Below are positions 1 to 15,094 of a stretch of DNA of 16,120 nt, piece after piece. The notes under the pieces were generated by a model that was not told the DNA's origin, ran no database searches, and saw only the letters and a list, made by a program, of their open reading frames with translations. How positions within the stretch are numbered: position 1 is the first letter of the stretch; each line of letters begins with the position of its first letter. The stretch covers positions 1-16,120 of the IMG/VR virus record IMGVR_UViG_2778261035_000013. One strand, written 5' to 3'. A program made the position numbers and the translations under genes. The DNA comes from a virus. Taxonomy: Duplodnaviria > Heunggongvirae > Uroviricota > Caudoviricetes.

Positions 1-1284
1 TTAATCAATCAAAAAATCCCACAAATCTCTTAAGGTATGGAAGTTTTGATTTCCACCGTTCATATATTCATCACACATTTTTTCAAGATCATCATCGTCT
101 ATTGACAGGATAAAACCTCTGCCATCATTTGCCGTGTCAAGACAACGCTGTCTGAATAATTTTTTATCCTCAATCTTCCTACAAACGAGAATACCTACAT
201 TTCCCCTATTCCTTGAGAACCTACCAGATAACTGATCTAACTCAGGATTTGCAATTTCTGACGTATAGTTTTTACACTCAACATAAATTCTAGGGCATGT
301 GTAATGTTGCGAAAGCCAATTAAAGAAACCATATTTGGCTTCATTATTATAAGTAATATCAATCCTCTTTCTACCATCATGAATTTTTTTCTGTTTCGTT
401 GGATAACATAATGAAGGATAGAATATTACAGAAAATATCTCTTCAATAAGATCTTCGTACTCCCCAGCTTGTTTTGTACCCGGCTTTAATGATTTTAATT
501 TATTGAGAATTGGATATATGTCAATTTTGTCACTGATTTCCTCTAACTCATTGAAAACTTCATGTGATAATGGTGCAGATGGATTTTTTTCTTTATGCTG
601 TTTATAATCTTCAAATACATCAGGCCGTTGTAAAGTTTGATTAATTACAGAAGGCTTATCACTTCCATATTTATTTTTTAAACTTTTTTTAGTTACTCGC
701 CTCGTGCCATTTTTTAATACCTCTACCAAGGAAGAGTTATTCCTTAAATGTTCATCTTGCATTTCTGGCAATAAATAATGATTATAAAACTCGTCATATT
801 GCAAACATAACCTATGTCTAACCAATAGCTTAGGAACTAATATTACTTTTCCATAAGTTGTCATTGGTAATGATACAAATTCACTATACCACTTTCCTCC
901 ATGTGGATCCCATATTGGCCCAGAATCAATATTGGGCGTTAATTTTACGCCATAATATTCACATATTTCTTGTGTGTATTTTATAAATGGACCTCTTAAA
1001 ATATTGCTTACTGCATCAGAAATCATGTCAGTCCCGATTCCTGGTATTAGTAGCGCTGTATCTTCAAGATCTTTTAACAATCCAGTTGTGACGGCCTTAC
1101 TTTGAGTTAGTGCATTCCAAACCGAATGAGCGGAGCCAGCGCCAAAACCATGTCCACGAGATTTTTCGGACGAATACCCTAAATGAAATTCATTCCTCTC
1201 ATTCAACGAGGCTAACAATTTTTGTGCTTCAGCATTTTTGCCAACCTTAATTAGTTTTAAAACCTTCTCAAAGAAACTTTGCAA
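1..1284 (-). CDS. hypothetical cargo protein (427 aa in ORF track) with C-terminal PD-(D/E)xK-like nuclease signature; candidate defence gene
   Basis: Long uninterrupted ORF whose stop codon is at 1..3. Motif ...HDGRKRIDITY...(26 aa)...RIYVECKNY fits the D...(D/E)xK pattern of restriction-endonuclease-fold nucleases. AT-rich (about one third GC over the first 60 nt). Only in-frame start before the first internal Met is TTG at 1284 with no obvious Shine-Dalgarno, so the 5' end is uncertain. Confidence 0.6.
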   Translation of the reverse strand: MQSFFEKVLKLIKVGKNAEAQKLLASLNERNEFHLGYSSEKSRGHGFGAGSAHSVWNALTQSKAVTTGLLKDLEDTALLIPGIGTDMISDAVSNILRGPFIKYTQEICEYYGVKLTPNIDSGPIWDPHGGKWYSEFVSLPMTTYGKVILVPKLLVRHRLCLQYDEFYNHYLLPEMQDEHLRNNSSLVEVLKNGTRRVTKKSLKNKYGSDKPSVINQTLQRPDVFEDYKQHKEKNPSAPLSHEVFNELEEISDKIDIYPILNKLKSLKPGTKQAGEYEDLIEEIFSVIFYPSLCYPTKQKKIHDGRKRIDITYNNEAKYGFFNWLSQHYTCPRIYVECKNYTSEIANPELDQLSGRFSRNRGNVGILVCRKIEDKKLFRQRCLDTANDGRGFILSIDDDDLEKMCDEYMNGGNQNFHTLRDLWDFLID

Positions 1285-2044
1285 GTGAGATGTAAGTTCT
1301 TGCCCCCAATTCGAATCTAAGGATTTAATAGCACCAGGGTCTAGAAAAACTGGTGTCAGTATCTAGTGGTATGTCAACGAAATCTAGATAAGCTTGAGAA
1401 CGATTAAGTTTGAAATATTCCGAAAAGCGCATAAAGACTCCTAAAAATCGAATGGTTTTTCAAAAAACATAACGCTATTAAAGAATCAACCAAAAATTGA
1501 TGAGATGGGGCACAGCTTAAGCAGAGAGATTCATGTTGAACGATTGAACTCATCATCTCAAGTAAAGATAAATATGGCAAGTACGTGGTTTGACGGTTGA
1601 GCAACCATTGATTGCTTCACCTATCAAAAAGTCGGATTAATATCAAGAAAGTTTAAAACACACCATCACTTAAAATCATTTAACGACGAAAATCGCACTA
1701 CACCGCACCCGCCTGCGGTTTTCATATCACTAAAATTTTTCAGTTGTGATTTTTTACAAACGATATCGCCAGCCCGCGCCCGCTCTGGGGATGCTCTGCG
1801 AGACAGGAACTGAAAAGAATGAAAAGAAATTCAGCTTTTTTCAGTTTTACTGTCCGTCATGTCTGTGGTCTGAATACGCAACACTATGATATTAAATGGA
1901 TAATTTATTTTAGGTGTGTGATTTTATGAAAATTTGTGAAACATGAAAAACATAACAACTTGAAAAATAATAATTTTATGTCCGTATAAACTGAAATCCT
2001 GTGTTCAGGTTTCGGGAACGGATCGGCCACTCCCGACGCATACT

Positions 2045-2317
2045 TTACCCATTTTTTTGCGCAGCCAGCAGCAACTTTAAAGCCTTTTCCCGCTCCTCGG
2101 GTGGAATGGCATCAATGAGCTCTTTAACCCTCCCCTGCCCGTTCAGCGCGCTTGGACTAACGGAATGGGAGAAAGCAACATTCATCACAAACGAGTGACC
2201 GCACTCCACATTAGAGCAATAGCAGTACACATCGTACAGTTGTGGGTGTTTCCTGTTTGTTTTACCTATCCGCGCTACTGCCTGACATGTGGGGCAGTAC
2301 ATTCTCATCATCTTCAT
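2045..2317 (-). CDS. ogr: Ogr/Delta-family zinc-finger late-gene transcription activator
   Basis: MYCPTCQ...(18 aa)...YCYCSNVECGHSF matches the CPxC...CxNVxCxxxF signature of P2 Ogr / P4 Delta. Several in-frame ATGs (2317, 2311, 2308, 2302), so the exact start is uncertain. Confidence 0.8.
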   Translation of the reverse strand: MKMMRMYCPTCQAVARIGKTNRKHPQLYDVYCYCSNVECGHSFVMNVAFSHSVSPSALNGQGRVKELIDAIPPEEREKALKLLLAAQKNG

Positions 2318-2385
2318 CGTTCTGTGCCCTATACTGTTGCCCGCCAGAGGAAGGGATTTGGAACCCTACCTCTTGTTCTGAACGC

Positions 2386-2574
2386 GTAACACTGGTAACA
2401 CGTGTAACATTATTGATTTAAAAGGATTTAATCTGTTACCAGTTAGCATAATCAAGAGGTAACGCGTGGTAACACACCATTTTTTGTTACCAGTGTTACC
2501 AGTCAGTATTTTTGACTGGTAACACTGAAGAACAGCATCAGTCGCGGGTGTTACCTCTGTTACCAGTGTTACCT
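2386..2574. repeat. iteron array (putative origin / cis replication region for the alpha primase-helicase)
   Basis: Eleven copies of the heptamer GGTAACA/TGTTACC in about 190 bp: forward at 2387, 2395, 2404, 2468, 2518; reverse at 2434, 2485, 2494, 2549, 2558, 2567; a near copy at 2458. Copies within clusters are spaced 8-9 bp. Lies between the alpha stop (2600) and the ogr start. Resembles the P4 type I iteron TGTTCACC. Confidence 0.65.
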
Positions 2575-2599
2575 CATAAAAATAAGACTCACGCGATAA

Positions 2600-5287
2600 T
2601 TACTCAGGTTCGGCGCTTCCCAGTACCTGTGTATTGAACTGGTACACACGTTTAAGCCCTATTTCTGGCAGGCGAATGCTGTTTTGCGTCCGGCCATCTT
2701 CACCGGGTTTCAGCCAGCCCGCGTCCACACACAACCTGGCCACCTTACGCGAGTCAAATCCCTTACAGATCTCCTTCCAGCCTGACGGGAGAACGTAGAA
2801 CGTCACAACCGGCTCCGTTACGTTGTCTCCTTTATCGACTTTTCTGAATCCCATCATTGAAACAGGCCGGTTCCTGTCGTCATTCCAGTCAGCAAACCGA
2901 CTGAACTGATTACGCGTCATGAAGTCCCGTACCTGTTCAAGTGCCGCTTTATCTTCCTGATTAGCTGTATGGCCACGGTCAGCCATCCATGCAGCCAGAC
3001 AACGTTGAGCGGCACGAAAGGCCTCTCCCTCCGGCCATCCTGTGATGCCCGCTTTTGTGGCCAGTTCCCCGGCCATCGCAACCAGAGCAAAACGGGTAAC
3101 AGCCCGGCCAACCTGATTCCCGGCATTTTCCGGCGTCAGCCTTCGGGTGTACTCTTTCAATAAGGCTTTCGCCTGGCTGGTCAGTTCCGGCAGTTCAGCG
3201 GTCAGGCAATGCAGCCAGTCGCGGAATGGTGCGCCATGATAATGCGCTACGTGCTGCTCAAGATGCTCAGCCAGGGTTTTCCCGCTACTGAAGCCATGAA
3301 GTTCTTCAAACACGCCATATTTGCCCGAATCGCTTGGGATCTGGATCATTCTGACCTCAACCCCGGCATACGTACGTTCCCCGGCGCTTGCGGCATGCTC
3401 TACCAGTGACAGTTCCCCGGTGGACAGAAACAACAGATTCCAGCGGTTGGTTTCCCTTACCGAACCATCTGTTCTTGCTCTGGCTTTGCCCTGCCCGTTA
3501 GCCAGCATATAAGCGATATTCCCCGCCTCCCTGCCGTCAACCTCCCGGATTTCATCGAGCATCAGCGTGGCATCATTGCGGCGGCTCGCCGTTCCTTCTA
3601 ATGCATTCCCCGTCGCCCGCCACGTATGCCAGAAATCTGTTCCACCACATACTGATGCAGCCACTTTCATCGTCGTGGTTTTACCGTCTGTTGATTCCCC
3701 TTTGAGGTGATAACCTCCACCGCCGATACCAACCAGTTTCAGAAGGGGGGCAGCAAATGCCAGACTCACCGCAAAGGCAAGACGGGCATTCTTTATGCAG
3801 TAACGGCCTATATTTTCACGCCAGTCCTCTGATGTGCCGCTGACACGAAAATCACGCCCCTGCACACTCGATGTTTGTAAGATGACTGACTGGGCTTCGC
3901 GCCCTATCACTTCATCCTGGAGAACGTAAACCCCGCCGTGCCAACCCGTTTTATTCACACAGGTTACTTTTCTGTCCGGTTTACACAGCGAGATATATTC
4001 CATCAGGAATGCTCTGGCCATACCGTTAATGTTGATGTAAGAAAGCCCGTTAACCAGCAGAACGCGGCGCAGTTCTTCCCCGCTGCCACCCAGCATCTCC
4101 ATCGGCATTGCCCATTTACGGCTGTTTCCGTTGGTATCTTCCCATTCCAGCAAACGCCCGTAATTACTTCCATCAGCATCACTGGTGATTGCCGTCACCC
4201 GCAACGGACTGCAAATTTTGATATTACGTATCTCTGTATCACCATCAGACTTATTAACCAGCTTGTCGTACCACAAATATTCTTTTGTCAGCCGGAACCC
4301 TTCTGGTAAACGGGTCTGCCCTTTGCCATGCAACGTCATTTCTTCACGAAAGGCATCTCTCGCCCGTTCTTTCCCCACTTCCTGCCGATAATCATCCCAG
4401 TCAGCCTTATGGCGTACCGGAGGGAGCGTTACCCAGCCATCCACCGCTTTGGCGGCTTTCTCTGCCTGAATACGCCCGGTGTTTTCTTTGCCGTCAGCCA
4501 GATCATTATCTCCTGCCACAATGATCCGGGTTTCCGGCCAGCGTTTTCGGATCTGCTCCGTCACCTTCAGTAAATTGGTGGCAGCGACAGCCGCCACGAT
4601 CCATCCTTCAGTCAGCAGACTGACGGTAAGCGCCGTGGCAAAACCCTCAGTGATAATCACCTGTTCAGGTGTTTCAGCGGGTATATCTGTCAGGGCAATG
4701 AATGCGCCAGACAGCTGGCTACCGGGCAGCAGACTTTTATCCCCGTCAGGATTGATAAGCTGGCCACCGGTAATATTCCCGGAAATATCCGTCAACGGCA
4801 GCAGTAATGAACCGGAGGAAAATGTTATTCCGGCCAGATTCAAAGGCTGTGACAGCAAGGGAAGTGAATACCCGTGTAAGCCCTTGTTTGTCAGATAGAC
4901 CGGCTCACCATTGCAGGACTGCTGTCTGAGTCGGGTATATCCCTCCGCGCCCGCTTCTTTTCCTGCTGCCTTTTTCCTGGCTGGCAAAGCGGGCTTCTCC
5001 TGTATTTCTGGTAATGCAAGCGCCTCAGATACCATCCCGGCGACTTCTTTTATCTTTCTCCCTGTCACCAGACGAACCAGGTCAAGACCATCGCCATGAC
5101 CGCACTGATTACAAAACCACGTCCCACGCCCCGCTTTATCGTCCAGCCGAAAGCGATCTTTTCCACCACAGGCAGGGCAAGCCCCATGATGTCCTGCGGA
5201 CGGTACTTTAATACCTAATGCTGACAGGATATAAGGCCAACGGCCAATTGCAGCCCCTGAAATTGTGGATACAGACGGTGTTTTCAC
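2600..5287 (-). CDS. P4 alpha-like bifunctional DNA primase-helicase (895 aa)
   Basis: N-terminal zinc ribbon CPACGGKDRFRLDDKAGRGTWFCNQCGHGDG, Toprim-like acidic motif IIVAGDNDLADG, Walker A P-loop GESTDGKTT in the C-terminal half. GTG start at 5287 overlaps the stop of the upstream ORF (GTGA). Confidence 0.9.
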   Translation of the reverse strand: MKTPSVSTISGAAIGRWPYILSALGIKVPSAGHHGACPACGGKDRFRLDDKAGRGTWFCNQCGHGDGLDLVRLVTGRKIKEVAGMVSEALALPEIQEKPALPARKKAAGKEAGAEGYTRLRQQSCNGEPVYLTNKGLHGYSLPLLSQPLNLAGITFSSGSLLLPLTDISGNITGGQLINPDGDKSLLPGSQLSGAFIALTDIPAETPEQVIITEGFATALTVSLLTEGWIVAAVAATNLLKVTEQIRKRWPETRIIVAGDNDLADGKENTGRIQAEKAAKAVDGWVTLPPVRHKADWDDYRQEVGKERARDAFREEMTLHGKGQTRLPEGFRLTKEYLWYDKLVNKSDGDTEIRNIKICSPLRVTAITSDADGSNYGRLLEWEDTNGNSRKWAMPMEMLGGSGEELRRVLLVNGLSYININGMARAFLMEYISLCKPDRKVTCVNKTGWHGGVYVLQDEVIGREAQSVILQTSSVQGRDFRVSGTSEDWRENIGRYCIKNARLAFAVSLAFAAPLLKLVGIGGGGYHLKGESTDGKTTTMKVAASVCGGTDFWHTWRATGNALEGTASRRNDATLMLDEIREVDGREAGNIAYMLANGQGKARARTDGSVRETNRWNLLFLSTGELSLVEHAASAGERTYAGVEVRMIQIPSDSGKYGVFEELHGFSSGKTLAEHLEQHVAHYHGAPFRDWLHCLTAELPELTSQAKALLKEYTRRLTPENAGNQVGRAVTRFALVAMAGELATKAGITGWPEGEAFRAAQRCLAAWMADRGHTANQEDKAALEQVRDFMTRNQFSRFADWNDDRNRPVSMMGFRKVDKGDNVTEPVVTFYVLPSGWKEICKGFDSRKVARLCVDAGWLKPGEDGRTQNSIRLPEIGLKRVYQFNTQVLGSAEPE

Positions 5288-5694
5288 AGCAGCACCTCCT
5301 GACCTTCCGGCTTCACAAATTCAAAACCTTCGGGTAGTTCGCCATCAGGTGCACCGAAAATAATATCCCGGTAAACCTCACGCATCTCTGTGACACCAAA
5401 AACTGACAGGCGAATATTTTCTGACATAAAGCCCGGTTTAAGCATCTTTTCCAGTTTCTCTGCGGCCAGTATGCAACCTGCATCAGCCCCAAATTCATTC
5501 ACCCACGGCATTTCAATATGGTAAATAATATTACTCACCACTTTTTCGTGGGTGAGTTCTATTCGTTCGCCATCTTCAATATAAACAGGTTCATTATGAA
5601 CACGCGCCATTAAGGAAATGAATGCATCAGCAATGTAATACCGTAAGACTGCTGTTCGTAAAGCATGCACCTTTAAATTTTGATTATTATTCAT
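5284..5694 (-). CDS. hypothetical protein (136 aa), alpha-operon member
   Basis: ORF with ATG start; start overlaps the stop of the upstream ORF by 8 nt and its stop overlaps the alpha start; backbone-like GC. Confidence 0.6.
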   Translation of the reverse strand: MNNNQNLKVHALRTAVLRYYIADAFISLMARVHNEPVYIEDGERIELTHEKVVSNIIYHIEMPWVNEFGADAGCILAAEKLEKMLKPGFMSENIRLSVFGVTEMREVYRDIIFGAPDGELPEGFEFVKPEGQEVLL

Positions 5695-5923
5695 CGCGCA
5701 TCACTCCCTTAATTGTGCTGGTTTCCTTAACAACGCCATCCAGTTGTTCGGCAATACAGGCCACTAAAGCCGCAGCGCCTTCCGCTGAAACAGTTCTCGC
5801 TCCATTCACTGTGGGAACGGACAGAACCTCTGCAAGAAATTCACTGGCCAGTGCCGCCCGTAACAGACGACTCTCACCCAGTTCACTCAATATGCAGCCT
5901 TGCTTAAAATTCATGGATTTCAT
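5687..5923 (-). CDS. hypothetical protein (78 aa), alpha-operon member
   Basis: ATG at 5923 overlaps the stop of the upstream ORF (ATGA); GGAGGTG Shine-Dalgarno 5 nt upstream. Confidence 0.5.
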   Translation of the reverse strand: MKSMNFKQGCILSELGESRLLRAALASEFLAEVLSVPTVNGARTVSAEGAAALVACIAEQLDGVVKETSTIKGVMRDE

Positions 5924-6123
5924 GCAACCACCTCCCCGGAGCTTTTCACAGGGATACGGGCAGCAAAGCTCAGGATAAATTCAGTGGCAAGTTTAAGGCG
6001 TGCAGCATGCTCGCAGTCTGCGATTACACGCACAGGACGTGGACGGGCATCACGGTCTGTACGGCGGACAGCCAGAAAGACAAAGGTAAATTCAGGGTGA
6101 GATAAAGCAGGGACTGTAGCCAT
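5920..6123 (-). CDS. hypothetical protein (67 aa), first gene of the alpha operon
   Basis: ATG at 6123 preceded by GAAGGAGG Shine-Dalgarno. The ORF-track ORF (5920..6609, 229 aa) extends upstream over the regulatory leader and terminator and is probably not translated there. Confidence 0.45.
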   Translation of the reverse strand: MATVPALSHPEFTFVFLAVRRTDRDARPRPVRVIADCEHAARLKLATEFILSFAARIPVKSSGEVVA

Positions 6124-6175
6124 AATGGCAACCTCCTTCAGATAGCGGGTAACGCTACCACCGGAGTTCCTACGC

Positions 6176-6342
6176 TCATGGGTGGTAGCCCAGACGGGGG
6201 TAGGAATACCGGCTCTGAAGGATACCGGCCAGCCCGAAAGCTGCCCCGCCTGGACTACCATAATACTGATGATGTGGCGTAAAAAATAAAAAAATACAAT
6301 CAGCCACCACACCATAAATTTTAGGTGAGTCAAAGCTGCGAC
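6176..6342 (-). ncRNA. candidate CI/C4-like immunity antisense RNA (boundaries approximate)
   Basis: Region between the intrinsic terminator and the operon RBS that contains the inverted (seqB-like) motif copy at 6199..6224; no coding potential with RBS seen. By analogy with P4 CI RNA and P1/P7 C4 RNA. Ends not determinable from sequence. Confidence 0.3.
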
Positions 6343-6367
6343 ACAAAAAAACACGCCTGGCGCGTGT
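6343..6367 (-). terminator. rho-independent terminator
   Basis: On the minus strand: ACACGC / GCCAG loop / GCGTGT followed by TTTTTTT (plus-strand A-run at 6345..6351). Confidence 0.6.
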
Positions 6368-6563
6368 AGTATCGCCTTCAGATAACACGGGTTCCTACGC
6401 CCGGCTGCCGATTTTGCGGCAACCTTTAAACTATATCCCGTGCATTCCTGGTGAGGCAAGAAATTTATAACCGAAAACTGATCATTGCCTGGATTAATTA
6501 ACGCTGGCATGCTTAAGCCTCTGCTTAAAAATAGTTCTTCATTTTTTCCTGATGCTGTAAACG

Positions 6564-6585
6564 AGACCCGCCTCTGAGCGGGTCT
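6564..6585 (-). terminator. hairpin immediately 3' of the capsid gene (putative terminator)
   Basis: Perfect 8-bp stem AGACCCGC/GCGGGTCT with 6-nt loop, 13 nt after the capsid stop; the T-rich tract is on the plus-strand side only, so function as a minus-strand terminator is uncertain. Confidence 0.35.
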
Positions 6586-6598
6586 TTCTGTCGCTAAG

Positions 6599-7603
6599 TC
6601 AATCCGCAAACGTCAGAGCGCTCTCATCGACAGCCGCGTACAGTTCTGGTTCACCGAGTGCATAGCCTTCATTGCGCAGGTAGGAATGTACGTATTCACT
6701 GTTTTCATCATCAAACTCAGCACGAAACCAGCGTGTTATCGCCTGGGTGTATATATGCAGATTATCCAGCGTCGTTACTGCCAGACGCTTACCCGGCATA
6801 AACGGGGGAATAAACGCAAAGCGGCCAGCAACAGAACTTGTAGCCATCTGTGCAGCATTCACATCAGCCGGGCGGTCTGCGGCATTAAATAACTTCAGGC
6901 GTTGATGTGCTGCCAGCTCTGCCCCAACTAGTACAACCAGACGGGGATCTTCACGAAACTGCTCAGCAATAAGCTCAGTAATCAGATGGTTGGCCAGAGA
7001 ATCAATATTTTTCCAGGTGCCAGTCTCTCCCAGAGTGACAGGCTCAGAGATGATTTGCTTCCCGTTTCCGTAGGCTTTCGCCAGTGCATGCCAGCCAATA
7101 TTGACATCCTCGCCTTTTTTATTGATTTCCGGGTTTGTAGTATTTGCAATCGACACACCATTGAAACCGATCCGCAGCATATCCAGCGCATATGCCTGAG
7201 CAAAAAAGCTCTCAACCGTTTTCTCAAACTCATCCGGCACGCCGGTATGGTAAATATGAGACATATCGGAATAGCTGATCCGGGCGCAGGTATCCGTCTC
7301 TGTCAGAAAGAACTCCGTACCATTGATTGCTATTTTTTTGTGGAAACGGCCACCATCCGCACGTCCGGTATGCAGTTCACTGGCACCAATATTGACGGCA
7401 TTACCTGACACGGCGTTAACATCACGTAGCGTGATATTTTTAATAAGCCAACCGGATTCCAGAATTGAGGTACGCAGTATATTTTCAGTGGGTTCGCTTA
7501 ATGCAAAGCGTCTGTTTGATTCCTCCTGATAGTTAGTGCCAGTAACGAATTTATTATGATAACGACGTGCTGCGTCCGGCCTTTCAGTTTTGAAGGCATA
7601 CAT
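6599..7603 (-). CDS. P2 gpN-like major capsid protein (334 aa; HK97 fold inferred)
   Basis: Recognisable similarity to P2 gpN as recalled from memory: N-terminal RFALSEPTENILRTSILESGWLIKNITLRDV vs KFTVEPSVTQTLMNTMQESSDFLTRINIVPV; GFNGV; NIGW vs AVGW; EDPRLVVLVGAELAA vs EDPDLVVIVGRQLLA; LDNLHIY vs LENLSIY. ATG start with GGTGA RBS. Confidence 0.75.
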   Translation of the reverse strand: MYAFKTERPDAARRYHNKFVTGTNYQEESNRRFALSEPTENILRTSILESGWLIKNITLRDVNAVSGNAVNIGASELHTGRADGGRFHKKIAINGTEFFLTETDTCARISYSDMSHIYHTGVPDEFEKTVESFFAQAYALDMLRIGFNGVSIANTTNPEINKKGEDVNIGWHALAKAYGNGKQIISEPVTLGETGTWKNIDSLANHLITELIAEQFREDPRLVVLVGAELAAHQRLKLFNAADRPADVNAAQMATSSVAGRFAFIPPFMPGKRLAVTTLDNLHIYTQAITRWFRAEFDDENSEYVHSYLRNEGYALGEPELYAAVDESALTFAD

Positions 7604-7625
7604 AGTTTTTCACCTTTTTTAGTAT

Positions 7626-8498
7626 TTAAGAAAAGATTTTATTTTTGTACTCAGTAACCCGATTGTATTTCATTACATGCTCAACATAATCCCGGTCACT
7701 TACGACTGAACGTAATACATAATTATCTGCTCGATAGTACTCCCTGTAAGCCATGACTCTTGCCATTCCACCGTTATTTAATACATAACGATCAGTTGGA
7801 ACGCTACAACGGCTAATAATTTCATTCACAGAATCAGACAAAGATTTGAGTGCATCTGTAATAAATTTAATATCACGAACAACGTCACCGTCATTAAACA
7901 CAGAAATAAAATCAGCAGGGATCTGGCCGGATTGAGGAAATATGCTCAGTAAACGCTTCTCAACTCCCTTACCAATGTAGTTAACTTCATCGGCCAGTAC
8001 GCCCGGTAAAAGCTTGATTGTGCTCAGTCGGTTATGTTGCTCATTCAGCCGGGAAACAGCCAGATGGTAACACCGTTCAGCATCCGCTCGTTCAGCATGC
8101 CCCGTTTTATTCGTTTTGGCTTCAGCAATGCTACTGACGCCGTTTTTTGAGAATGTGCTTTTCCATGCAACTTCCGCATTTGTCACTTCACGCTGCCGGA
8201 AAGATAACTCTTCCTCTTCCTGACGACACAACTGGGCATACCGGCTTAGGAGTAGGTTGATCTCATTCGCCACAGCTTCCGTATCAGGTACTGTTAATCC
8301 CGTAAGTGAATACAGCTTTTCACCTTTAGCGCGCAGCTTATTTAATGAAAATATTTCAATAATTCGCACAATACATGCAGTGTCGCTATGAGTTTCTTTA
8401 AACGGACTTACTTTATAGTTTCCTAACACGGAAACATATTCATTCTTAATTGGAAGGGATATGTATTGACTCCCCGCCGGTTGTAGACGGTAATTCAT
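7626..8498 (-). CDS. hypothetical AT-rich protein (290 aa) immediately upstream of the capsid gene
   Basis: ATG with GAGGAG Shine-Dalgarno; 22-bp gap to the capsid gene; central region rich in charged/helical sequence (LLLSRYAQLCRQEEEELSFRQREV...); lower GC than flanking backbone. Confidence 0.6.
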   Translation of the reverse strand: MNYRLQPAGSQYISLPIKNEYVSVLGNYKVSPFKETHSDTACIVRIIEIFSLNKLRAKGEKLYSLTGLTVPDTEAVANEINLLLSRYAQLCRQEEEELSFRQREVTNAEVAWKSTFSKNGVSSIAEAKTNKTGHAERADAERCYHLAVSRLNEQHNRLSTIKLLPGVLADEVNYIGKGVEKRLLSIFPQSGQIPADFISVFNDGDVVRDIKFITDALKSLSDSVNEIISRCSVPTDRYVLNNGGMARVMAYREYYRADNYVLRSVVSDRDYVEHVMKYNRVTEYKNKIFS

Positions 8499-8534
8499 AT
8501 AAACTCCTCATAAATTCTTCTAATACTAATGTTT

Positions 8535-8735
8535 TTACTCTGAAGAATGACTATCACGCCAAGCATAGTAGTCACCAGCACGCCATCGGGACATACGACC
8601 TAACTTGATTGGTTTAGGAAAACGTCCCAGAGAAATCAGTTTATAAATCCATTTATCAGTAAACAGACAATCAGATGTAATGAATTTCATATCAATGAGC
8701 GAGTCAGCAGAAGGACGATTATCAGTAAACCCCAT
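8535..8735 (-). CDS. alpA: AlpA-family phage transcriptional regulator / excisionase-like (66 aa)
   Basis: Motif LGRFPKPIKLGRMSRWRAGDYYAW matches the AlpA FPKPxKLG...W signature. ATG at 8735 preceded by AGAGAGGAA; the ORF-track start at 8759 is a TTG extension. Confidence 0.75.
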   Translation of the reverse strand: MGFTDNRPSADSLIDMKFITSDCLFTDKWIYKLISLGRFPKPIKLGRMSRWRAGDYYAWRDSHSSE

Positions 8736-8800
8736 AATGAGTTCCTCTCTATGTATCAATCTATATCAACGAAGAGGATTAAAACATCGTTCAAAAACAT

Positions 8801-8835
8801 AAAAAAGGCGAGTAAGAAAAATTTCCTTACTCACC
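8801..8835 (-). terminator. rho-independent terminator after the int-proximal cargo gene
   Basis: Stem 8807..8816 / 8826..8835 (GGCGAGTAAG vs GGTGAGTAAG, one mismatch) with 9-nt loop, followed on the minus strand by TTTTTT (plus A-run 8801..8806). Confidence 0.5.
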
Positions 8836-8842
8836 AAAATTG

Positions 8843-9631
8843 TTAATTTTTTGTAAATGATGGTTTCTTGAATATAGATGATATTAGTTTGCTAATAATT
8901 GGGTGTGATAGCGGAGGCTCTTTTTTATCAGGCCAAAATTCCTCAGCCCGACTAAAGATAAGGTCAGCAAGGGCTGCTGCATTTTCCTTTCGGTATGCCA
9001 TGTCCTCTTTATAAAGATATAATGCTACACTTAGAATCTCATTTCTCTTGGTAGCATGTCTTTCTTGCTGTGCAATTGATAACGATTTATATTTATCATT
9101 AGAAACATCACCATTTAATATCAGATGCAATTTCTTTACATCTTCCCGCTCCAGGTACGCATCTCCCTCATATCCAAACCCATCATCATTTTTCCAGTCA
9201 ATTTGAATATATTTGACCATTTCAGAATAGGTGGTACCAGTAGGAGACAACAATGATGGGTACTCCGGGAACTGCCCCTCATAAAAAACGAAATCACTTT
9301 TAACTTTTGGTGGCATTTGGAAATAGCCTTTTGTACTCGCCAGCACTAGTTTTTTATCTTTTTTAACTTCATTAATCTTAATCAAACTAAACTCAGATAT
9401 ATAACTAAAACCATCTTTATCTTTTTTCAAAGAGTTTATATTCTGAATAAAAGAGTCCACATCTCTTACTTTATGCTTTGAAAAAGACCATCGCCCACAC
9501 ATTCTTAGCGACAATTGAATGTCTTTTTCATCCGCAATATAAATAACATCTTGCTCATCGCAGCCCAATATTTTAGCGGCCTCACTAATACTATAATGAG
9601 TTCTATGAAGCTTGAGAGTATTATTTACCAT
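8843..9631 (-). CDS. hypothetical AT-rich cargo protein (262 aa) between int and alpA
   Basis: ATG start 3 bp after the integrase stop; N-terminal helix-turn-helix-like stretch YSISEAAKILGCDEQDVIY; followed by a terminator; AT-rich. Confidence 0.6.
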   Translation of the reverse strand: MVNNTLKLHRTHYSISEAAKILGCDEQDVIYIADEKDIQLSLRMCGRWSFSKHKVRDVDSFIQNINSLKKDKDGFSYISEFSLIKINEVKKDKKLVLASTKGYFQMPPKVKSDFVFYEGQFPEYPSLLSPTGTTYSEMVKYIQIDWKNDDGFGYEGDAYLEREDVKKLHLILNGDVSNDKYKSLSIAQQERHATKRNEILSVALYLYKEDMAYRKENAAALADLIFSRAEEFWPDKKEPPLSHPIISKLISSIFKKPSFTKN

Positions 9632-9634
9632 TAC

Positions 9635-10816
9635 TCAAGACTCCGTTCCACCAATAAAATCACTGTACCATTGCATCATTTCCCGACGCCCATCAAGATA
9701 CTGAGCATGATTATATATCCCCCGAATAGCATTTTTATCCAAATGTGCAAGCTGGGTTTCAATCCATGCACTATTGAAGCCTTTTTCATGCAAAATAGTG
9801 CTCATTGTGTGTCTGAAACCATGGCCAGTAACTCGGCCAGCATATCCAATACGCTTAAAGACCTGATTAATACTGGCCTCACTCATGCACTTACTTGGAT
9901 CGTTGCGCCCTGGAAACATCAAAGGATAGTTTCCAGTCAGTTCTTTTAATGTTTCAAGATGGGCTAATGCTTGATTTGAAAGCGGCACAATATGAGCACG
10001 TCGCATTTTCATACGTTCTTTAGGAATCTCCCACACCGCATTATCAAAATCCACCTCACGCCACTCACCTGCTCTTAGTTCTCCTGTTCTTAGACCCGTC
10101 AGGATAAGTAAATGTGCCCCCAGCAATACAATTGGGCTTCCTGAATAAGCGTTAAGGGCAGTAAAGAACTCCGGCAGCTCGTTGGCTTTGAGGAATGGAT
10201 AGTGGACTGCTTCATGTCCTTGCATCGCACTGGCAAGATCCGGTGCAGGATTGTAGATTGCTCTACCCGTTACGATGGCATAGCGGAAAACTTCACCGCA
10301 TCGCTGACGGACTTTCTTCGCTTTCTCCATAGCGCCTCGTGCTTCTATCAACCTCAGTACTTCAAGAAGTTCTAGGGGCTGAATATCGGCTATAGGTTTG
10401 TGTCCAATATGCGGGAAAATGTCTTTCTCAAACGCCTCAATGATGTCTGAAGCATAGCCCTCAGACCATTTGGGAGATTTCATTTTGTGCCACTCTAACG
10501 CCACTTCTCTGAATGGGTTAAGTGTCTCGATCGCTGCGTTTAAAGCATGCTTCTTTGCTTTTTTCACTTCGCCAGGATCTTCACCTGCTGCGAGTAGTTT
10601 CTTTGCGTCTTCGCGTTTTTGTCTGGCATCTGCGAGGGTGACTGTTGGATAGACACCAAAGGACAAGCGCTTCTCTTTACCAGCAAAACGGTACTTCATA
10701 CGCCAGTAACGCGAGCCATTAGGTTCAACCTGAAGGTACAGGCCACCTCCATCAGATAGCTTATAGCTCTTCTCTTTTCCTTTAGCGGCTTCAACCTTGC
10801 GAGCATTCAGCATCAT
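9635..10816 (-). CDS. int: P4-family tyrosine integrase
   Basis: N-terminus KSYKLSDGGGLYLQVEPNGSRYWRMKYRFAGKEK typical of P4-type integrases; C-terminal catalytic region with ...HGFRHT... and ...LAHLD...YNHAQY... consistent with the R/H/R/Y tyrosine-recombinase motifs; adjacent to the tRNA fragment. Start placed at the ATG at 10816; the ORF-track start at 10885 is TTG. Confidence 0.9.
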   Translation of the reverse strand: MMLNARKVEAAKGKEKSYKLSDGGGLYLQVEPNGSRYWRMKYRFAGKEKRLSFGVYPTVTLADARQKREDAKKLLAAGEDPGEVKKAKKHALNAAIETLNPFREVALEWHKMKSPKWSEGYASDIIEAFEKDIFPHIGHKPIADIQPLELLEVLRLIEARGAMEKAKKVRQRCGEVFRYAIVTGRAIYNPAPDLASAMQGHEAVHYPFLKANELPEFFTALNAYSGSPIVLLGAHLLILTGLRTGELRAGEWREVDFDNAVWEIPKERMKMRRAHIVPLSNQALAHLETLKELTGNYPLMFPGRNDPSKCMSEASINQVFKRIGYAGRVTGHGFRHTMSTILHEKGFNSAWIETQLAHLDKNAIRGIYNHAQYLDGRREMMQWYSDFIGGTES

Positions 10817-10980
10817 TGGGGGCACATTTCCTAGACCGAACAGAACATGCCCCCGATTGTGCCCCCAATTGTATGTTGATTTCAAGAGATAGGGGTTGAC
10901 GTCAAATGACGAAGAATCGCGTAATATCTATGTTTTTAAAGGGCTTTGTTGATTTGAGATGACTTGGAAATACTAAGGGA

Positions 10981-11026
10981 TGGTGCCGATAATAGGAGTC
11001 GAACCTACGACCTTCGCATTACGAAT
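10981..11026 (-). other. 46-nt 3' fragment of tRNA-Thr(CGU) (thrW-like): att core / displaced tRNA 3' end, not an intact tRNA
   Basis: Minus strand reads ATTCGTAATGCGAAGGTCGTAGGTTCGACTCCTATTATCGGCACCA, matching a thrW-type tRNA from the anticodon loop to the CCA end; the match breaks at 11027, so the 5' half of the tRNA is absent. Confidence 0.7.
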
Positions 11027-11356
11027 TATAAGAATCCGATTCTAATTCAAAGCATTACCCCATCAACACTGCGCTCACACGTCCCACCACATCAAAACAT
11101 GTAAAGCCTTGCAAGCCATTGTGAGGCCTTATGTGTCTCAGTTTTGTCCCATCTTGTATTACGACTCGCATAGCTAATGAAGATAAACGTGACGACAAAC
11201 GGCGAAGCAGTCTTCTTTTCTTTCGCTGCTTCCCCACACCCAGCATGCATACCTTTCCGTCATAACTGAAGTGAATGTCTGTTATGAGCGAGGAGCGGAC
11301 CTTGAATGAAGCACAAACATCCTATAGCTCCTATTATCAAAATGCGTGAGCAAAAA

Positions 11357-12172
11357 TTAATTGATATTTTGGGATATTTCTCTCAAGTATGGTTCAACCT
11401 CTGGGCGTTGCATATGATGCTTCATTGAGTCAAGAAAGGTTATGGGGGTTTGCATTACATCTACTTTAGATTTATTTTTCCTAATGAGAGTCATTCCTTT
11501 GCAAGTTTCTAAATATTCCTTAACTAAAGCTTTCTTTCGATTTCTATGCAAATCGCCTTTAAAAGCTAGAATATGAAAAATTGCGGCACCAATTACAATC
11601 TGTTTCACCGCGCATTCGGATGATTCGAATTCGCCCCATGAAATTCGACCAAAGAAAGGATTCGCATATCCAGAAGGATGCGCTTTGAGGTTATGGCCAT
11701 ATTTTAGCATTTCCGATGGTGTCAATTTTAATGGTTTAAACAACCCAGCCGAAATTGCAAAGTCTGAAAAGTCAGAACTCAACCCCAAAATAACATCTTT
11801 GTATTTATCAAAAAAAGACAATTTCTTCTCACTAGCCCTAGATGAATTAAATGCAACTTTAAGTAGCCAGCGAGAAAGCAAGCTATAATTATAATCGATA
11901 TTAACTTTTTCTTTTAAAAAACACTCTGTAAAGAAACCAGAGCGCTCTAGCATATTTTTGACATAACCATCTAAATTACATAGAACTACGTTATTACAAT
12001 GAAAACAAACATCTTTTATTTTAGCCTCACCACTTATCATTTTTTTTGATTTTTCTTGCCATCCTATAGTTTTCCCAGATGCTGTACTATATTGATATTC
12101 ATAGATGAAAGACGGGAGTATATGTTCTCTAGTCATTTTCCCTTCCTGACCACAATATATGCAAGTGCTCAT
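11357..12172 (-). CDS. hypothetical AT-rich protein (271 aa) with N-terminal HNH-like nuclease motif
   Basis: CIYCGQEGKMTREHILPSF...VCFHCNNVVLC gives a CxxC...EH...CxxC-N HNH-like arrangement in the first ~65 aa; ATG with AAGGA RBS; AT-rich. Confidence 0.6.
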   Translation of the reverse strand: MSTCIYCGQEGKMTREHILPSFIYEYQYSTASGKTIGWQEKSKKMISGEAKIKDVCFHCNNVVLCNLDGYVKNMLERSGFFTECFLKEKVNIDYNYSLLSRWLLKVAFNSSRASEKKLSFFDKYKDVILGLSSDFSDFAISAGLFKPLKLTPSEMLKYGHNLKAHPSGYANPFFGRISWGEFESSECAVKQIVIGAAIFHILAFKGDLHRNRKKALVKEYLETCKGMTLIRKNKSKVDVMQTPITFLDSMKHHMQRPEVEPYLREISQNIN

Positions 12173-12497
12173 CTTATTCCTTTATCAAAGATATAATAAC
12201 TAAAATTCGATTATAACAATTAAAAACTCGCGTTAGTAGTTGTTAACTTATCAATAAACAGTTTCTCAATTATTAGTCAGCATCATCAGAAGAAACCCCT
12301 CTCCAAAGATAATTTTATAAAATAATATAAATGTCCACGCCTGGCACGGAGTAGACTGGCTATCTAAGCTAAAGGTCTGCTGTGAGCGAAAAGCTGACAG
12401 GACGTAGTTTCTTGTTTAAAGAATCAGTTAAGGCATTAAAAATAGATGTAACCAGAGCCAAGGTATAATATCCTGGCTCTATTTACACTTGCGTACA

Positions 12498-13202
12498 TTA
12501 TTCTTGCTTTTTGGGAGGTTTTGGGTGTTTCTCAGGTAATTTTTCTGCAATCTTAAATACCCCCTCATCTTTTAGTATTGTTCGCATTACAAAATTTTCT
12601 ATAATTACCAAAAGTGATTTAAATTCAGCTTCGTTCGGTGACCATGCCCTGTGTGCTGCTGAGTTGCCAGCTTCGGTTACAATTTTAAGTTGGCTCCTTT
12701 CTGTTTCCCCAATAAAACCTTCCTCTTTAAGAATGTCAACCTTCTGGCCTAATGTATGTCCTGGGTGAATATTTAAAACTTCGACTGTTCTGTCAAAAAT
12801 AGTTCTGAGCCCAATTGCCGCTAAAATGAGTGATTTATTTTGAAATGCAATATACATTTCGTTCATTATCACATAAAGCTGATAATCTTTGCTTAATATC
12901 TCGCCAAACCAAGTGGGTCTAATCTCTTCTTGCTCTTGCGTAGGATATGTTGATATATGATAGTTATATACTATACAATCATAGCCTGACTCATCTCTTT
13001 CATAGTCGTAATCTTCACTATGACGGGATTTAATATATGTAAATATTCCGTCGCATCCCATGCACTCTAATAATTTGTATTCACTTTCAGCCCAAAAATA
13101 GTTGTCCCCATCCCCCTCGCTCCATTCTCTTTTTTTATAACCTATTGTGTGACAATTTTTTTCACCTTTACAGTATGGACAAGGCGCTTTGATTTTTTCC
13201 AT
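12498..13202 (-). CDS. hypothetical AT-rich protein (234 aa) with N-terminal zinc ribbon
   Basis: CPYCKGEKNCH...CMGCDG Cys cluster; C-terminal region with a GNSAAH motif loosely reminiscent of DUF4145/HEPN-like domains (unverified); ATG start without a clear Shine-Dalgarno. Confidence 0.5.
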   Translation of the reverse strand: MEKIKAPCPYCKGEKNCHTIGYKKREWSEGDGDNYFWAESEYKLLECMGCDGIFTYIKSRHSEDYDYERDESGYDCIVYNYHISTYPTQEQEEIRPTWFGEILSKDYQLYVIMNEMYIAFQNKSLILAAIGLRTIFDRTVEVLNIHPGHTLGQKVDILKEEGFIGETERSQLKIVTEAGNSAAHRAWSPNEAEFKSLLVIIENFVMRTILKDEGVFKIAEKLPEKHPKPPKKQE

Positions 13203-13572
13203 AATAATTATTCTGCCAATTAAATTAATATTGATATGACATATATGCCAATGATTTATAAACGATAAATTGACTATTCACTTTACTACAATAATTTTCA
13301 TATGAGTAGTGATAAGCCTCTCATTTTCTTTGTCGTAGATTGATCTGCTCTGTATCGATTAACACCGAATGGGGGAGTAGCTTCCGCTTTTGGCACATAG
13401 TAGTCCTAGAGACAGTGACGTAAAGTCATGGAGGATCGGTGGGAGGAGGTGCTAATCCTTTCATACAAAAAATATGTAAAATCAATAACGGCTGTAAATC
13501 ATTCAATACTCGCACTATCGGAAGTTCACCAGCCAGCCGCAGCACGTTCTTGCATACGACGAGCCTGCGGTT

Positions 13573-14127
13573 TCATTTATCTCCGACCGGAAACATCTTA
13601 TACAGTGTCGATACACCAACATCATAGATGATCGCCACCTTTTGGCGAGGAACGCCTGATGCAATTAATCGCCCGGCCTGCGCCCATTGTTCTGGTGTAA
13701 GTTTGGGACGACGTCCACCAATTCGTCCCTGCGCGCGAGCAGCTTCCAGTCCAGCTTTTGTTCGTTCAACAATCAGTTCTCGTTCCATTTCAGCCAAGGC
13801 ACCCATCACATGAAAGAAAAAACGCCCCATCGGTGTGCTGGTATCAATAGCATCCGTCAGGCTGCGAAAATTAACGCCACGTTCGCGCAACTCCTCAACT
13901 AGAATGACCAAATGCCGCATACTACGCCCCAGCCGATCCAGCTTCCAGACAACCAGTGTGTCACCTGCCGATAATGTCCTGAGCAGTTTTTTCAGTCCGG
14001 GCCTTTCGGACTTCGTACCGCTTATCTTGTCTTCAAAAATCAGCTCGCATCCTGCACAGTTCAGCGCATTACGTTGTAGATCTGTGTTCTGGTCATTTGT
14101 TGACACACGTACATAGCCAATAAGCAT
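13573..14127 (-). CDS. pin: Pin/Gin/Hin-family serine DNA invertase
   Basis: MLIGYVRVSTNDQNTDLQ...LVVWKLDRLGRSM...FRSLTD...MGRFFFHVMGALAEMERELI matches e14 Pin / Mu Gin (catalytic Ser in VRVST). Start placed at the ATG at 14127; the ORF-track start at 14163 is an upstream extension. Confidence 0.9.
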   Translation of the reverse strand: MLIGYVRVSTNDQNTDLQRNALNCAGCELIFEDKISGTKSERPGLKKLLRTLSAGDTLVVWKLDRLGRSMRHLVILVEELRERGVNFRSLTDAIDTSTPMGRFFFHVMGALAEMERELIVERTKAGLEAARAQGRIGGRRPKLTPEQWAQAGRLIASGVPRQKVAIIYDVGVSTLYKMFPVGDK

Positions 14128-14181
14128 GGTAGATCTCCCTGACAAAAGCAGGAATGATGCCATTTGCTCGTTATTTCTGCA

Positions 14182-14207
14182 TTTTCATAAACGTTGGTTT
14201 GAGAGAA
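14182..14207. other. left crossover site (pix/gix/hix-like) of the invertible segment
   Basis: TTTTCATAAACG TT GGTTTGAGAGAA has the 12+2+12 quasi-palindromic layout of Hin-family sites (compare hix TTATCAAAAACC AA GGTTTTTGATAA). Its inner half is an inverted repeat of the window end: the first 13 nt, GGTTTGAGAGAAG, match the reverse complement of 16108..16120 at 12 of 13. Confidence 0.55.
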
Positions 14208-14648
14208 GCGGCAAAACGAAATGTGGGCAACGGGGAAAACCAAATCCCTGATATGTCTTTCTGGACGGTTACTGGTGGCAATGGAAATTTTGTGATTCGT
14301 CAACCTGACGGGCTAATCATTCAGATGGTTACTGTAAGTATAAGCGGTCCAGTGGCGATGAATGGAATGACTGATAATGCTTATGCCATTACAGGTTCTA
14401 ATAAGTCTTATATTGCCACAGCCACATTGCCCTTTGTATTTCCTAATAAGGTGCTGGGCGTTATCCCTCTGGTATCAACAACAGCTTATGGTGGTGTATC
14501 CAGTAATATTACAGGTTCATACGCGACGGCGGTTTGTTCTTTTGCCGCTGTCAGGGGGAATAATACGATTGTGTTCAAAGTCGACAAACCACTGAATGCA
14601 GCCTTTCCTTCAGATACCAGCGTCTCAGCGTTAATCATTGGACGGTAA
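14196..14648 (+). CDS. tail fibre variable C-terminal cassette (currently promoterless/silent orientation)
   Basis: Reading frame begins inside the left crossover site (GLREAAKRNVGNGEN...); the upstream in-frame codons of the ORF-track ORF (from 14154) lie in the pin promoter region; followed directly by a tail-fibre assembly gene. Confidence 0.6.
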   Translation, partial: GLREAAKRNVGNGENQIPDMSFWTVTGGNGNFVIRQPDGLIIQMVTVSISGPVAMNGMTDNAYAITGSNKSYIATATLPFVFPNKVLGVIPLVSTTAYGGVSSNITGSYATAVCSFAAVRGNNTIVFKVDKPLNAAFPSDTSVSALIIGR

Positions 14649-14650
14649 TA

Positions 14651-15094
14651 ATGAACTCAGTATTCTTTTCACCCGGAAGTAAAAGTTTTTATCTGCAAGA
14701 ATTGTTTCCAGAATATGAGGATGCGGGAACGCTTCCTGATGATGTTATTGAAATTACCAGAGAAACATATGAGCAATTTCTTGGTCTGCATCCAGAAGGG
14801 AAAGAAATTGGCGCTGACAGTTCAGGACGGCCAATATGGATTAATTCCCCACCCCCTTCAAAAGAGGATGAGGTGTTGACGGCTGAAATGAAAAAAATAT
14901 CTTTGGTTTCAGAAGTCAATACCTACATCAATACCCATCAGTGGCCTGGCAAAGCTGCTATTGGTCGTCTGAAAGGCGAGGAACTGGCGCAATATAATTC
15001 GTGGCTGGATTATCTGGACGCACTGGAACTGGTCGATACTTCCTGTGCGCCAGATATTGAATGGCCTACGCCTCCGGCAGTTCAGGCCAGATGA
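14651..15094 (+). CDS. tail fibre assembly protein (147 aa) of the silent cassette
   Basis: ATG 2 nt after the upstream stop; C-terminal half AAIGRLKGEELAQYNSWLDYLDALELVDTSCAPDIEWPTPP parallels the C-terminus of the opposite assembly protein (TRLNAVLDYIDAVTATNTSTAPDVIWPELP). Confidence 0.7.
   Translation: MNSVFFSPGSKSFYLQELFPEYEDAGTLPDDVIEITRETYEQFLGLHPEGKEIGADSSGRPIWINSPPPSKEDEVLTAEMKKISLVSEVNTYINTHQWPGKAAIGRLKGEELAQYNSWLDYLDALELVDTSCAPDIEWPTPPAVQAR

Follow-up and report, generated by a model that had tools for sequence, protein, structure and literature searches.

The DNA analysed here, called the window throughout, is a stretch of 16,120 nucleotides (positions 1 to 16,120 of the IMG/VR virus record IMGVR_UViG_2778261035_000013, Caudoviricetes). 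On the minus strand of its first 1284 nucleotides, it carries an ORF of 427 aa, which begins with TTG and ends with a TAA stop codon. The region is AT-rich, with a GC content of 34.4% (window 1-1672) as compared to 46.5% in the satellite backbone (1673-10885) and 53.4% in the gene for the alpha primase. The translated ORF contains a GHGFGAGSAHS stretch near its N-terminus and two motifs further downstream. These are RIDITY (Asp codon at 360-358) and IYVECK (Glu codon at 279-277 and Lys codon at 273-271), the latter being followed by the stretch SGRFSRNRGNVG. A preliminary description of this DNA, made from the sequence alone, had reported the AT-rich ORF with its TTG start, the pair RIDITY...IYVECK with a subsequent basic/Gly-rich stretch, and GHGFGAGSAHS. 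All of these are found in the sequence. On sequence grounds, a chance ORF is excluded because more than 4600 homologues exist, nearly all of the 120 listed ones having about 477 residues, and because the motif residues are conserved (see below). The features of the locus are collected in Table 1, in which residue numbers refer to the intact protein of 477 aa.

Table 1. Features of the cargo gene and its flanks in the window
Feature	Position	Strand	Basis or remark
TAA stop codon of the gene	1..3	(-)	In TK3887, the attR repeat (ATGGTGCCGATAATAGGA) lies 116 bp further downstream, beyond the window
ORF, 427 aa, TTG start	4..1284	(-)	Residues 51-477 of the intact protein (DUF8370/PDC-M36A, 477 aa); precomputed Pfam assignment PF28123 on the 427-aa product
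PD-(D/E)xK nuclease domain, residues ~318-477	4..483	(-)	Predicted; model and weak Mrr_cat match
Codons of E386-C387-K388 (VECK), predicted (D/E)xK of core strand 3	271..279	(-)	Conservation and model
Codon of D359 (RIDITY), predicted catalytic Asp, start of core strand 2	358..360	(-)	Conservation and model
Conserved N-terminal module, residues 1 to ~290	565..1432	(-)	Alignments; the module also occurs alone and in DS-20
5' gene remnant	1325..1432	(-)	ATG at 1432-1430 and 26 native codons (MRFSEYFKLNRSQAYLDFVDIPLDTD), followed by out-of-frame codons until the stop at 1327-1325
2-bp (TA/AT) deletion causing the frameshift	1353..1354	.	Intact allele CTGGTATGTCAG, window allele CTGGTGTCAG; comparison with TK3887
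Shine-Dalgarno sequence AGGAG	1438..1442	(-)	5 nt upstream of the true ATG; read from the sequence
Cargo-specific upstream region, presumed promoter	1433..1689	(-)	Similarity to sister satellites begins only at 1672-1689, the cargo/backbone junction
Ogr/Delta-like zinc-finger gene, conserved backbone flank of the slot	2045..2317	(-)	WP_000783295.1; same accession in sister satellites with other cargo

The frameshift and the true start codon

Among 5,426 complete E. coli genomes, the satellite DNA of the window is present in a single one, that of strain TK3887 (NZ_AP044767.1). In this strain, the gene has 1434 nt (NZ_AP044767.1 positions 3608920-3610353) and codes for a protein of 477 aa, annotated as a hypothetical protein (WP_021574992.1). 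When window positions 1-2000 were mapped base by base, the sole difference to TK3887 was a 2-bp (TA) deletion at window position 1353/1354. Over window positions 1-11026, the sequences show 100.0% identity, with 11026 bases in the window and 11028 in TK3887. Therefore, the deletion is taken as the only difference over 11 kb, which is consistent with the mapping of positions 1-2000. The two extra bases in TK3887 restore an ATG start codon (window 1432-1430), which is preceded by an AGGAG Shine-Dalgarno sequence. Because the TK3887 island is otherwise identical over 11 kb, the gene in the window is assigned as a frameshift allele. In the window, an ORF of only 35 codons begins at this ATG, in a frame other than that of the TTG ORF. 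The identical 35-aa remnant is also called in L017. The preliminary description had suspected that the start might be misplaced or the gene damaged. The suspicion of damage was right, and the TTG ORF, which had been taken as the gene, is corrected to the 3' part of a 477-aa gene.

The deletion recurs in the Logan assembly of run SRR3951614, which was made independently and matches the window over 4284 bp with 100% identity. It is therefore present in the sequencing reads and is not an assembler artefact. In a contig from SRR12298522, the 427-aa call is the same but the lesion is another one, namely an insertion of 1 bp at a distance of 17 nt. In RefSeq, the 427-aa product is represented as WP_249818654.1 on 3-4 contigs and the intact protein is found on 337 contigs by exact look-up, which makes the intact allele about 100 times commoner. 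Programmed frameshifting was considered as the reason for the 2-bp deletion. It was rejected, as no slippery motif is present and the intact allele so strongly prevails.

It might be argued that translation of the TTG ORF yields a functional protein with a shortened N-terminus, given that its 427 codons are uninterrupted and that RefSeq annotates the protein. We consider this very improbable. The TTG has no Shine-Dalgarno sequence ahead of it and is located 40 nt past the stop codon of the remnant. Nearly all listed homologues start at the MRFSE position. The 50 residues that would be lost include the invariant positions Q13, L16, D17, F18, D20, T25, D26, V29, F30, P33, S41, W43 and G44, and the great excess of contigs with the intact allele also argues against such a variant. 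With the first 50 residues, invariant ones included, being lost through the 2-bp deletion and with a TTG devoid of a ribosome-binding site, the frameshift allele of the window probably gives no functional product. It follows that nothing at this locus is active as read.

The satellite and its cargo slot

The gene belongs to a P4-type satellite integrated at tRNA-Thr, which also has genes for an integrase, an AlpA-like regulator, a P2-family capsid protein, an Icd-like protein, a DUF927 primase and an Ogr/Delta-like protein. The P4-type backbone is confirmed by the C4 and isrK RNAs. The gene under study is the last one before attR. It is the sole gene between the Ogr gene and attR, so that the slot is also devoid of a methyltransferase gene. 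Sister satellites with the same Ogr accession contain, in the same slot, either the Kiwa genes kwaAB or a pair encoding DprA and a HAD-like protein. Thus, variable cargo is inserted into a conserved backbone next to att/int, as is typical for a hotspot. This agrees with the preliminary description, which had called it a cargo gene and a candidate single-gene defence and had referred to variable defence hotspots in P4-like satellites.

For P4, a hotspot with variable defence cargo between the conserved genes psu and int has been described (Rousset et al. 2022, PMC9122126). The slot analysed here resembles that hotspot in being a small variable locus by att/int, with different AT-rich cargo in each of the near-identical satellites. 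It differs in that psu is absent, that the flank is an Ogr/Delta-like gene, and that a P2-family capsid gene is carried. Because psu is absent, searches anchored on psu would miss this satellite lineage. In the upstream region of the gene, the frequency of promoter-like sites does not exceed that of shuffled sequence. A repeat search of positions 1285-2400 revealed no iteron-like array.

In other settings, members of the family are likewise always solitary cargo. In Yersinia, the gene is carried by the same satellite, and in Vibrio and Pseudomonas it neighbours integrases and filamentous prophages. In Geobacter, it is located at the end of a small integrative element, in Klebsiella near Gabija, and another copy occupies the hotspot of a P2-like prophage, adjacent to the PADLOC candidate PDC-S31. 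Across 7 genomic contexts, no conserved partner gene was found. A partner gene "PDC-M36B" was considered and rejected: the neighbour in Providencia is a separate candidate (PDC-S31/DUF2971), and the other neighbours have no match.

Family assignment and distribution

The PADLOC candidate PDC-M36A matches the intact protein from end to end (model PDLC04597, E 5.5e-53, profile positions 7-245 and 234-435 of 457), and a second PDC-M36A model, PDLC04598, matches at E 2.5e-19. A PADLOC check had been proposed in the preliminary description. PHROG 27295, for which no function is assigned, also matches from end to end (E 4e-187). The Pfam family PF28123 (DUF8370) is assigned to all of the 120 listed homologues, to each of the genes for which the neighbourhood was queried and to the 427-aa product of the window; this membership is a precomputed annotation, the local Pfam copy being devoid of that new model. 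The intact protein shares the length of 477 aa and all motifs with PF28123, PDC-M36A and PHROG 27295, without any difference at the family level. The gene in the window differs from the members by the 2-bp deletion.

The search for homologues resulted in more than 4600 matches. Among the 120 listed, nearly all have 476-478 aa and sequence identities are 58-95%; their hosts are Enterobacterales, Vibrio, Pseudomonas, Shewanella, Halomonas and Geobacter. An exhaustive profile search yielded 3,668 clusters (50% identity level) when E-values of up to 1e-3 were accepted; 701 of them remain at a limit of 1e-30. These clusters span Proteobacteria, Bacillota and Actinobacteria. Three further searches were negative. 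A search of NCBIfam gave only noise below threshold, a comparison of the family profile with PDB sequences gave only spurious matches (the beta subunit of Na/K-ATPase at E ~0.5), and tblastn against 50,697 deposited phage genomes gave no match.

PF28123, PDC-M36A and PHROG 27295 are catalogue entries without an assigned function, and PDC-M36 is an unvalidated PADLOC candidate. We found no paper that names PDC-M36, DUF8370, PF28123 or WP_021574992. The accession was not found in the searched portion of the supplement to Rousset et al. 2022 (PMC9122126), and a 2022 preprint on T4 and nuclease systems covers known systems only. As judged from these sequence comparisons, the gene in the window is a broken member of a catalogued but functionally uncharacterised family of defence candidates. 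The suggestion of a new family, made in the preliminary description, is not borne out, since the family is already listed as PF28123/DUF8370, as PDC-M36A, as PHROG 27295 and in Table S10 of the DefensePredictor study (see below).

The C-terminal nuclease domain

An AlphaFold2 model was obtained for the homologue P0001, which is 95% identical to the intact protein (pLDDT 83, pTM 0.84). In this model, a helix (320-337, with E327 and E331) is followed by three strands (342-346, 360-364 and 382-388), a second helix (396-406) and a further strand (413-418). Residues 320-418 are thus predicted to form the alpha-beta-beta-beta-alpha-beta core of PD-(D/E)xK nucleases. D359 is located at the start of strand 360-364, and E386 and K388 are within strand 382-388. 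Together with C387 and Q401, these residues are invariant in 35 of 35 sequences. In 72 representatives with 30-45% identity to P0001, the conservation of all five is 90% or higher. The nuclease signature noted in the preliminary description is therefore upheld, because the fold is predicted and the motif residues are conserved.

The Pfam domain Mrr_cat matches the intact protein only over residues 375-418, with a score of 17.9 bits (E 0.004) that is below the gathering cut-off of 21. In the structural comparison, the C-terminal domain qualifies as a FokI-like cleavage domain, and the enzymes ranked at the top by Foldseek agree with those of the structure comparison. Based on the model, we predict that the C-terminal domain is a FokI/Mrr-like PD-(D/E)xK nuclease. 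The likeness to FokI is confined to this domain. Type IIS enzymes and nickases of the FokI/BspD6I type have no sequence similarity to the DUF8370 protein, and the recognition domains of FokI are unrelated to its N-terminal part. Moreover, a cognate methyltransferase would be expected for a FokI-like Type IIS restriction-modification system, but none is encoded in the satellite slot.

The preliminary description had proposed that the protein is Shedu-like. In such a case, an N-terminal domain as in SduA would sense free DNA ends and would release a C-terminal DUF4263 nuclease. The overall organisation is indeed alike, with a non-catalytic N-terminal part and a C-terminal PD-(D/E)xK nuclease in a single protein. 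However, a Pfam search with E-values of up to 10 gives no match to DUF4263, no SduA model is among the PADLOC matches, and the SduA chains have a score of only 5.6-5.8 in the structure comparison. Membership in Shedu is thus effectively refuted, and we attribute an extremely low probability to an SduA-type protein. As a working analogy, Shedu is nevertheless plausible, with an autoinhibited nuclease being freed by a phage cue.

The N-terminal module

The N-terminal module is conserved to at least the same extent as the nuclease domain. It is characterized by the motifs LDFVD, EPNExxLGxS, GLLxDLED, GIGxDxISD, YTQ and LVPK..VR. D136 and S139 (both within GIGxDxISD) are invariant, and several acidic residues are near-invariant. 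The module also makes up entire proteins of 314-318 aa, the genes of which are located on small plasmids in Acinetobacter baumannii and Bacillus cereus (hhalign probability 99.95-100% over residues 1-285). The copy on the A. baumannii plasmid adjoins a RelE/ParE pair. In a few proteins, the fusion partner of the module is a PNP_UDP_1 phosphorylase domain or a C-terminus devoid of D..ExK. As it is thus encountered without a nuclease, the module may itself be active.

Structure searches revealed no structural analogue of the module, which reaches a pLDDT of only 66 when modelled alone. Neither Mrr_N, SRA, PUA or another known reader of modified bases nor a winged helix was detected in it. Given that there is no structural analogue and that the isolated module is modelled with low confidence, its role as a sensor is one that we purely infer. 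The high pTM of the full-length model suggests that the module and the C-terminal domain pack together.

DefensePredictor and the distant relative DS-20

In Table S10 of the DefensePredictor study (Science 2026, PMC13092281), WP_021574992.1 is listed as a "predicted novel defense gene" with a mean log-odds of 12.09. The same table reports a remote HHblits match to a Type IV Mrr restriction endonuclease (probability 97.2, coverage 0.29). In the part of the supplement that was available, the accession occurs only in Table S10 and is not found among the tested units (PMC13092281).

That study also describes DS-20 (WP_032291790.1, 487 aa), a validated single-gene defence (PMC13092281). According to the available part of this source, DS-20 lowers the efficiency of plating by 1.15-1.7 log10 (10-50-fold) for Bas1, Bas3, Bas11, Bas19, T3, T7 and SECphi27, and it leads to small plaques for several other phages. 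DS-20 is encoded between psu and int of a P4-like satellite. It matches the PDC-M36A model at E 8e-21 and the intact protein by BLASTP at E 3e-10, with 22% identity over residues 3-356. Profile comparison of the N-terminal modules gives an hhalign probability of 99.0% (E 6e-18) over residues 1-210. The C-terminus of DS-20 has a PD-(D/E)xK domain with GRGPVDY...LVEFK, and comparison of the two C-terminal domains is not significant (hhalign E 0.077), the best local alignment pairing GRKRID with GRGPVD.

DS-20 and the DUF8370 protein have a similar architecture, consisting of the N-terminal module, a helical linker and a C-terminal PD-(D/E)xK domain with G-R-x-x-[IV]-D ... [VL]-E-x-K. They also have in common their similar size, the organisation as a single gene and the location in a hotspot of P4-like satellites. 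They differ by the low sequence identity and by the assignment of DS-20 to PHROG 30194. The nuclease domain of DS-20 was annotated as DpnII/MboI-like by its authors, not as Mrr/FokI-like (PMC13092281). By sequence, DS-20 is a distant relative, with homology to DUF8370 that extends over residues 1 to ~210 only. Its phenotype cannot simply be transferred to the DUF8370 protein.

Proposed function

The minus strand of window positions 1-1432 probably carries a frameshift-inactivated allele of a 477-aa DUF8370/PDC-M36A single-protein nuclease, which is the sole cargo of the slot in a P4-like satellite and is anti-phage in its intact form. We infer both the anti-phage function and the split of roles between the two modules. 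The intact protein would most likely protect the host and the satellite against other phages. The N-terminal module of ~290 aa would be responsible for sensing or regulation, by recognition of a target or trigger or by autoinhibition. Once licensed, the C-terminal FokI/Mrr-like domain would cut DNA, using D359, E386 and K388. Because neither a methyltransferase nor a partner gene is present, the discrimination between self and non-self would have to be intrinsic to the protein, being based, for example, on a feature of the phage DNA or on a phage-induced state. The preliminary description had called the gene a nuclease-type defence effector. For the family, this is supported by the conserved motif, the location as hotspot cargo, the PDC-M36A match and the validated distant relative DS-20; for the copy in the window, it probably does not apply, as this copy is frameshifted.

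Alternatively, the intact protein could be a stand-alone Type IV (modification-dependent) restriction enzyme, with the N-terminal module reading a modified base of the phage DNA and the Mrr/FokI-like domain cutting nearby. This would explain why a methyltransferase, which is not encoded in the slot, is not needed. It is also in line with the weak Mrr_cat match over the catalytic strand and with the remote HHblits match to a Type IV enzyme in the DefensePredictor table (PMC13092281). However, the Mrr_cat score is below the gathering cut-off, and no known reader domain for modified bases was detected. In the available part of the phage table of that study, T4 is absent from the DS-20 rows (PMC13092281). 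DS-20, even though only a distant relative, restricts T3 and T7. The DNA of these two phages is, to our knowledge, not hypermodified. The restriction of T3 and T7 thus argues against a strict dependence on hypermodified DNA, and we consider a Type IV enzyme unlikely.

The protein might also be a selfish nuclease of the mobile element, acting as an addiction or exclusion factor or as a weapon against competing satellites and helper phages. Without exception, the gene is part of an integrative element or borders on one, be it a satellite, a P2-like or filamentous prophage, or a small plasmid (beside RelE/ParE). The existence of two different frameshift alleles would fit a costly gene. On the other hand, there is no conserved antitoxin-like partner, bona fide defence systems occupy the same slot, and DS-20 protects against unrelated virulent phages. 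In practice, such a nuclease would differ from a defence protein in the beneficiary rather than in the mechanism. A purely selfish role is quite improbable in our view, and an anti-phage single-protein nuclease is the reading that we prefer.

Significance for the family

The practical message of the window itself is smaller, as it contains a pseudogene allele from a family that has already been flagged by PADLOC, Pfam and DefensePredictor. With respect to the satellites, the analysis shows the Ogr-att slot of psu-less P4-type elements to be a defence hotspot, and one that psu-anchored surveys overlook. If the intact protein defends, a widespread family would join the single-protein nuclease immunity genes. 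This family would be linked, via the shared N-terminal module, to the validated DS-20. In that case, a search for the phage cue would best begin with this module.

The interest lies at the family level, in the role of the N-terminal module. The module is found alone on small plasmids and in fusion with two different PD-(D/E)xK domains; occasional fusions with a PNP/UDP phosphorylase domain also exist. On this basis, it is tempting to speculate, as a tentative reading that we regard as somewhat unlikely, that the module is a new phage-sensing or enzymatic domain which licenses interchangeable effectors. If this were true, DUF8370 and DS-20 would be the founders of a mechanistically new and widespread class of single-protein immunity, comprising ~3,700 clusters at 50% identity.

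Frameshift lesions in the candidate nuclease gene

The DUF8370 gene, a 477-aa candidate defence nuclease in the cargo slot between the Ogr/Delta gene and att, is affected by two distinct frameshift lesions. These are located in codons 27-33 and are 17 nt apart (see table). Either lesion, the 2-bp deletion or the 1-bp A insertion, leads to the same 427-aa call. The paired lesions could represent recurrent inactivation of a costly nuclease; alternatively, they could be due to read errors, with the allele from SRR12298522 being found on a short Logan contig (L018).

The cargo/backbone junction (1672-1689) is followed, 13-30 nt away and just inside the backbone, by the G+C-rich hairpin ACCGCACCCGCCTGCGGT. 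This hairpin could act as terminator for Ogr, or it could belong to the recombination or cos-proximal boundary.

Features of the window and of related contigs (window coordinates unless stated)
Feature	Position	Strand	Details
Lesion 1, 2-bp deletion	1353/1354		alleles: window and SRR3951614
Lesion 2, 1-bp A insertion	1337; L018 1321-1340		allele: SRR12298522
Hairpin ACCGCACCCGCCTGCGGT	1702-1719		just inside backbone
C4 antisense RNA	6178-6265	-	Rfam, 81 bits
isrK	6346-6423	-	Rfam, 69.5 bits
P2-family major capsid protein	6599-7603	-	satellite-encoded
Cys-rich protein	11357-12172	-	271 aa
DUF4145 protein	12498-13202	-	234 aa
Putative Hin/Pin-type DNA invertase	13573-14163	-	196 aa; by eye from translation
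ORFs resembling tail-fibre and tail-fibre-assembly genes	within 13573-16117	opposed	by eye from translations
Stand-alone N-module proteins	L015 2480-3424; L016 2500-3456		314-318 aa; without nuclease

DUF8370 relatives and their neighbours

The conserved N module (residues 1 to about 290) also occurs in stand-alone proteins, encoded in Bacillus cereus and Acinetobacter baumannii on plasmids of 4.5-9.5 kb; in the latter species, the gene is adjoined by a RelE/ParE toxin-antitoxin pair. In rare members (P0235, 751 aa; P0246, 1144 aa), an additional PNP_UDP_1 (nucleoside phosphorylase) domain is C-terminal to the DUF8370 region, which hints at effector modularity or at gene calls fused in metagenomes.

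In a hotspot of a Providencia P2-like prophage, the DUF8370 gene adjoins that of a DUF2971 protein (L002/L003 6884-7621), which matches PADLOC PDC-S31 (E 5e-51). In Table S6 of the DefensePredictor paper (PMC13092281), the working id "2971" corresponds to the validated DS-45, and FDRT, a DUF2971-annotated unit, is listed as negative when tested.

Regions beyond the satellite

When compared to E. coli TK3887, which has the intact allele, identity of the window stops at 11026, within tRNA-Thr; ARAGORN found no tRNA in the window. Past this position, there is a second AT-rich block (within 11026-13202; 31-38% GC) with two minus-strand genes. The product of one, the Cys-rich protein, has no family match. 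Possibly, the block is another island, or another stretch of cargo, located at this tRNA. It is followed by a putative invertase gene, adjoined by the tail-fibre-like ORFs. Based on gene identities assigned by eye from translations, 13573-16117 would correspond to a host-range cassette that can invert and belongs to a cryptic prophage.

Probable immunity region and capsid gene of the satellite

C4 antisense RNA and isrK each overlap a 229-codon mechanical ORF (5920-6609), in or beside the Icd-like region as annotated in TK3887. In our interpretation, the satellite has its P4-type immunity region here. In the satellite lineage of the window, both psu and sid are absent, and the major capsid protein, of the P2 family, is encoded by the satellite itself; the Yersinia relative (L010 1623-3154) additionally has a GPO_N scaffold-like gene. 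This makes the satellite a P4 variant with a capsid gene. Such a variant would escape psu-anchored hotspot surveys.
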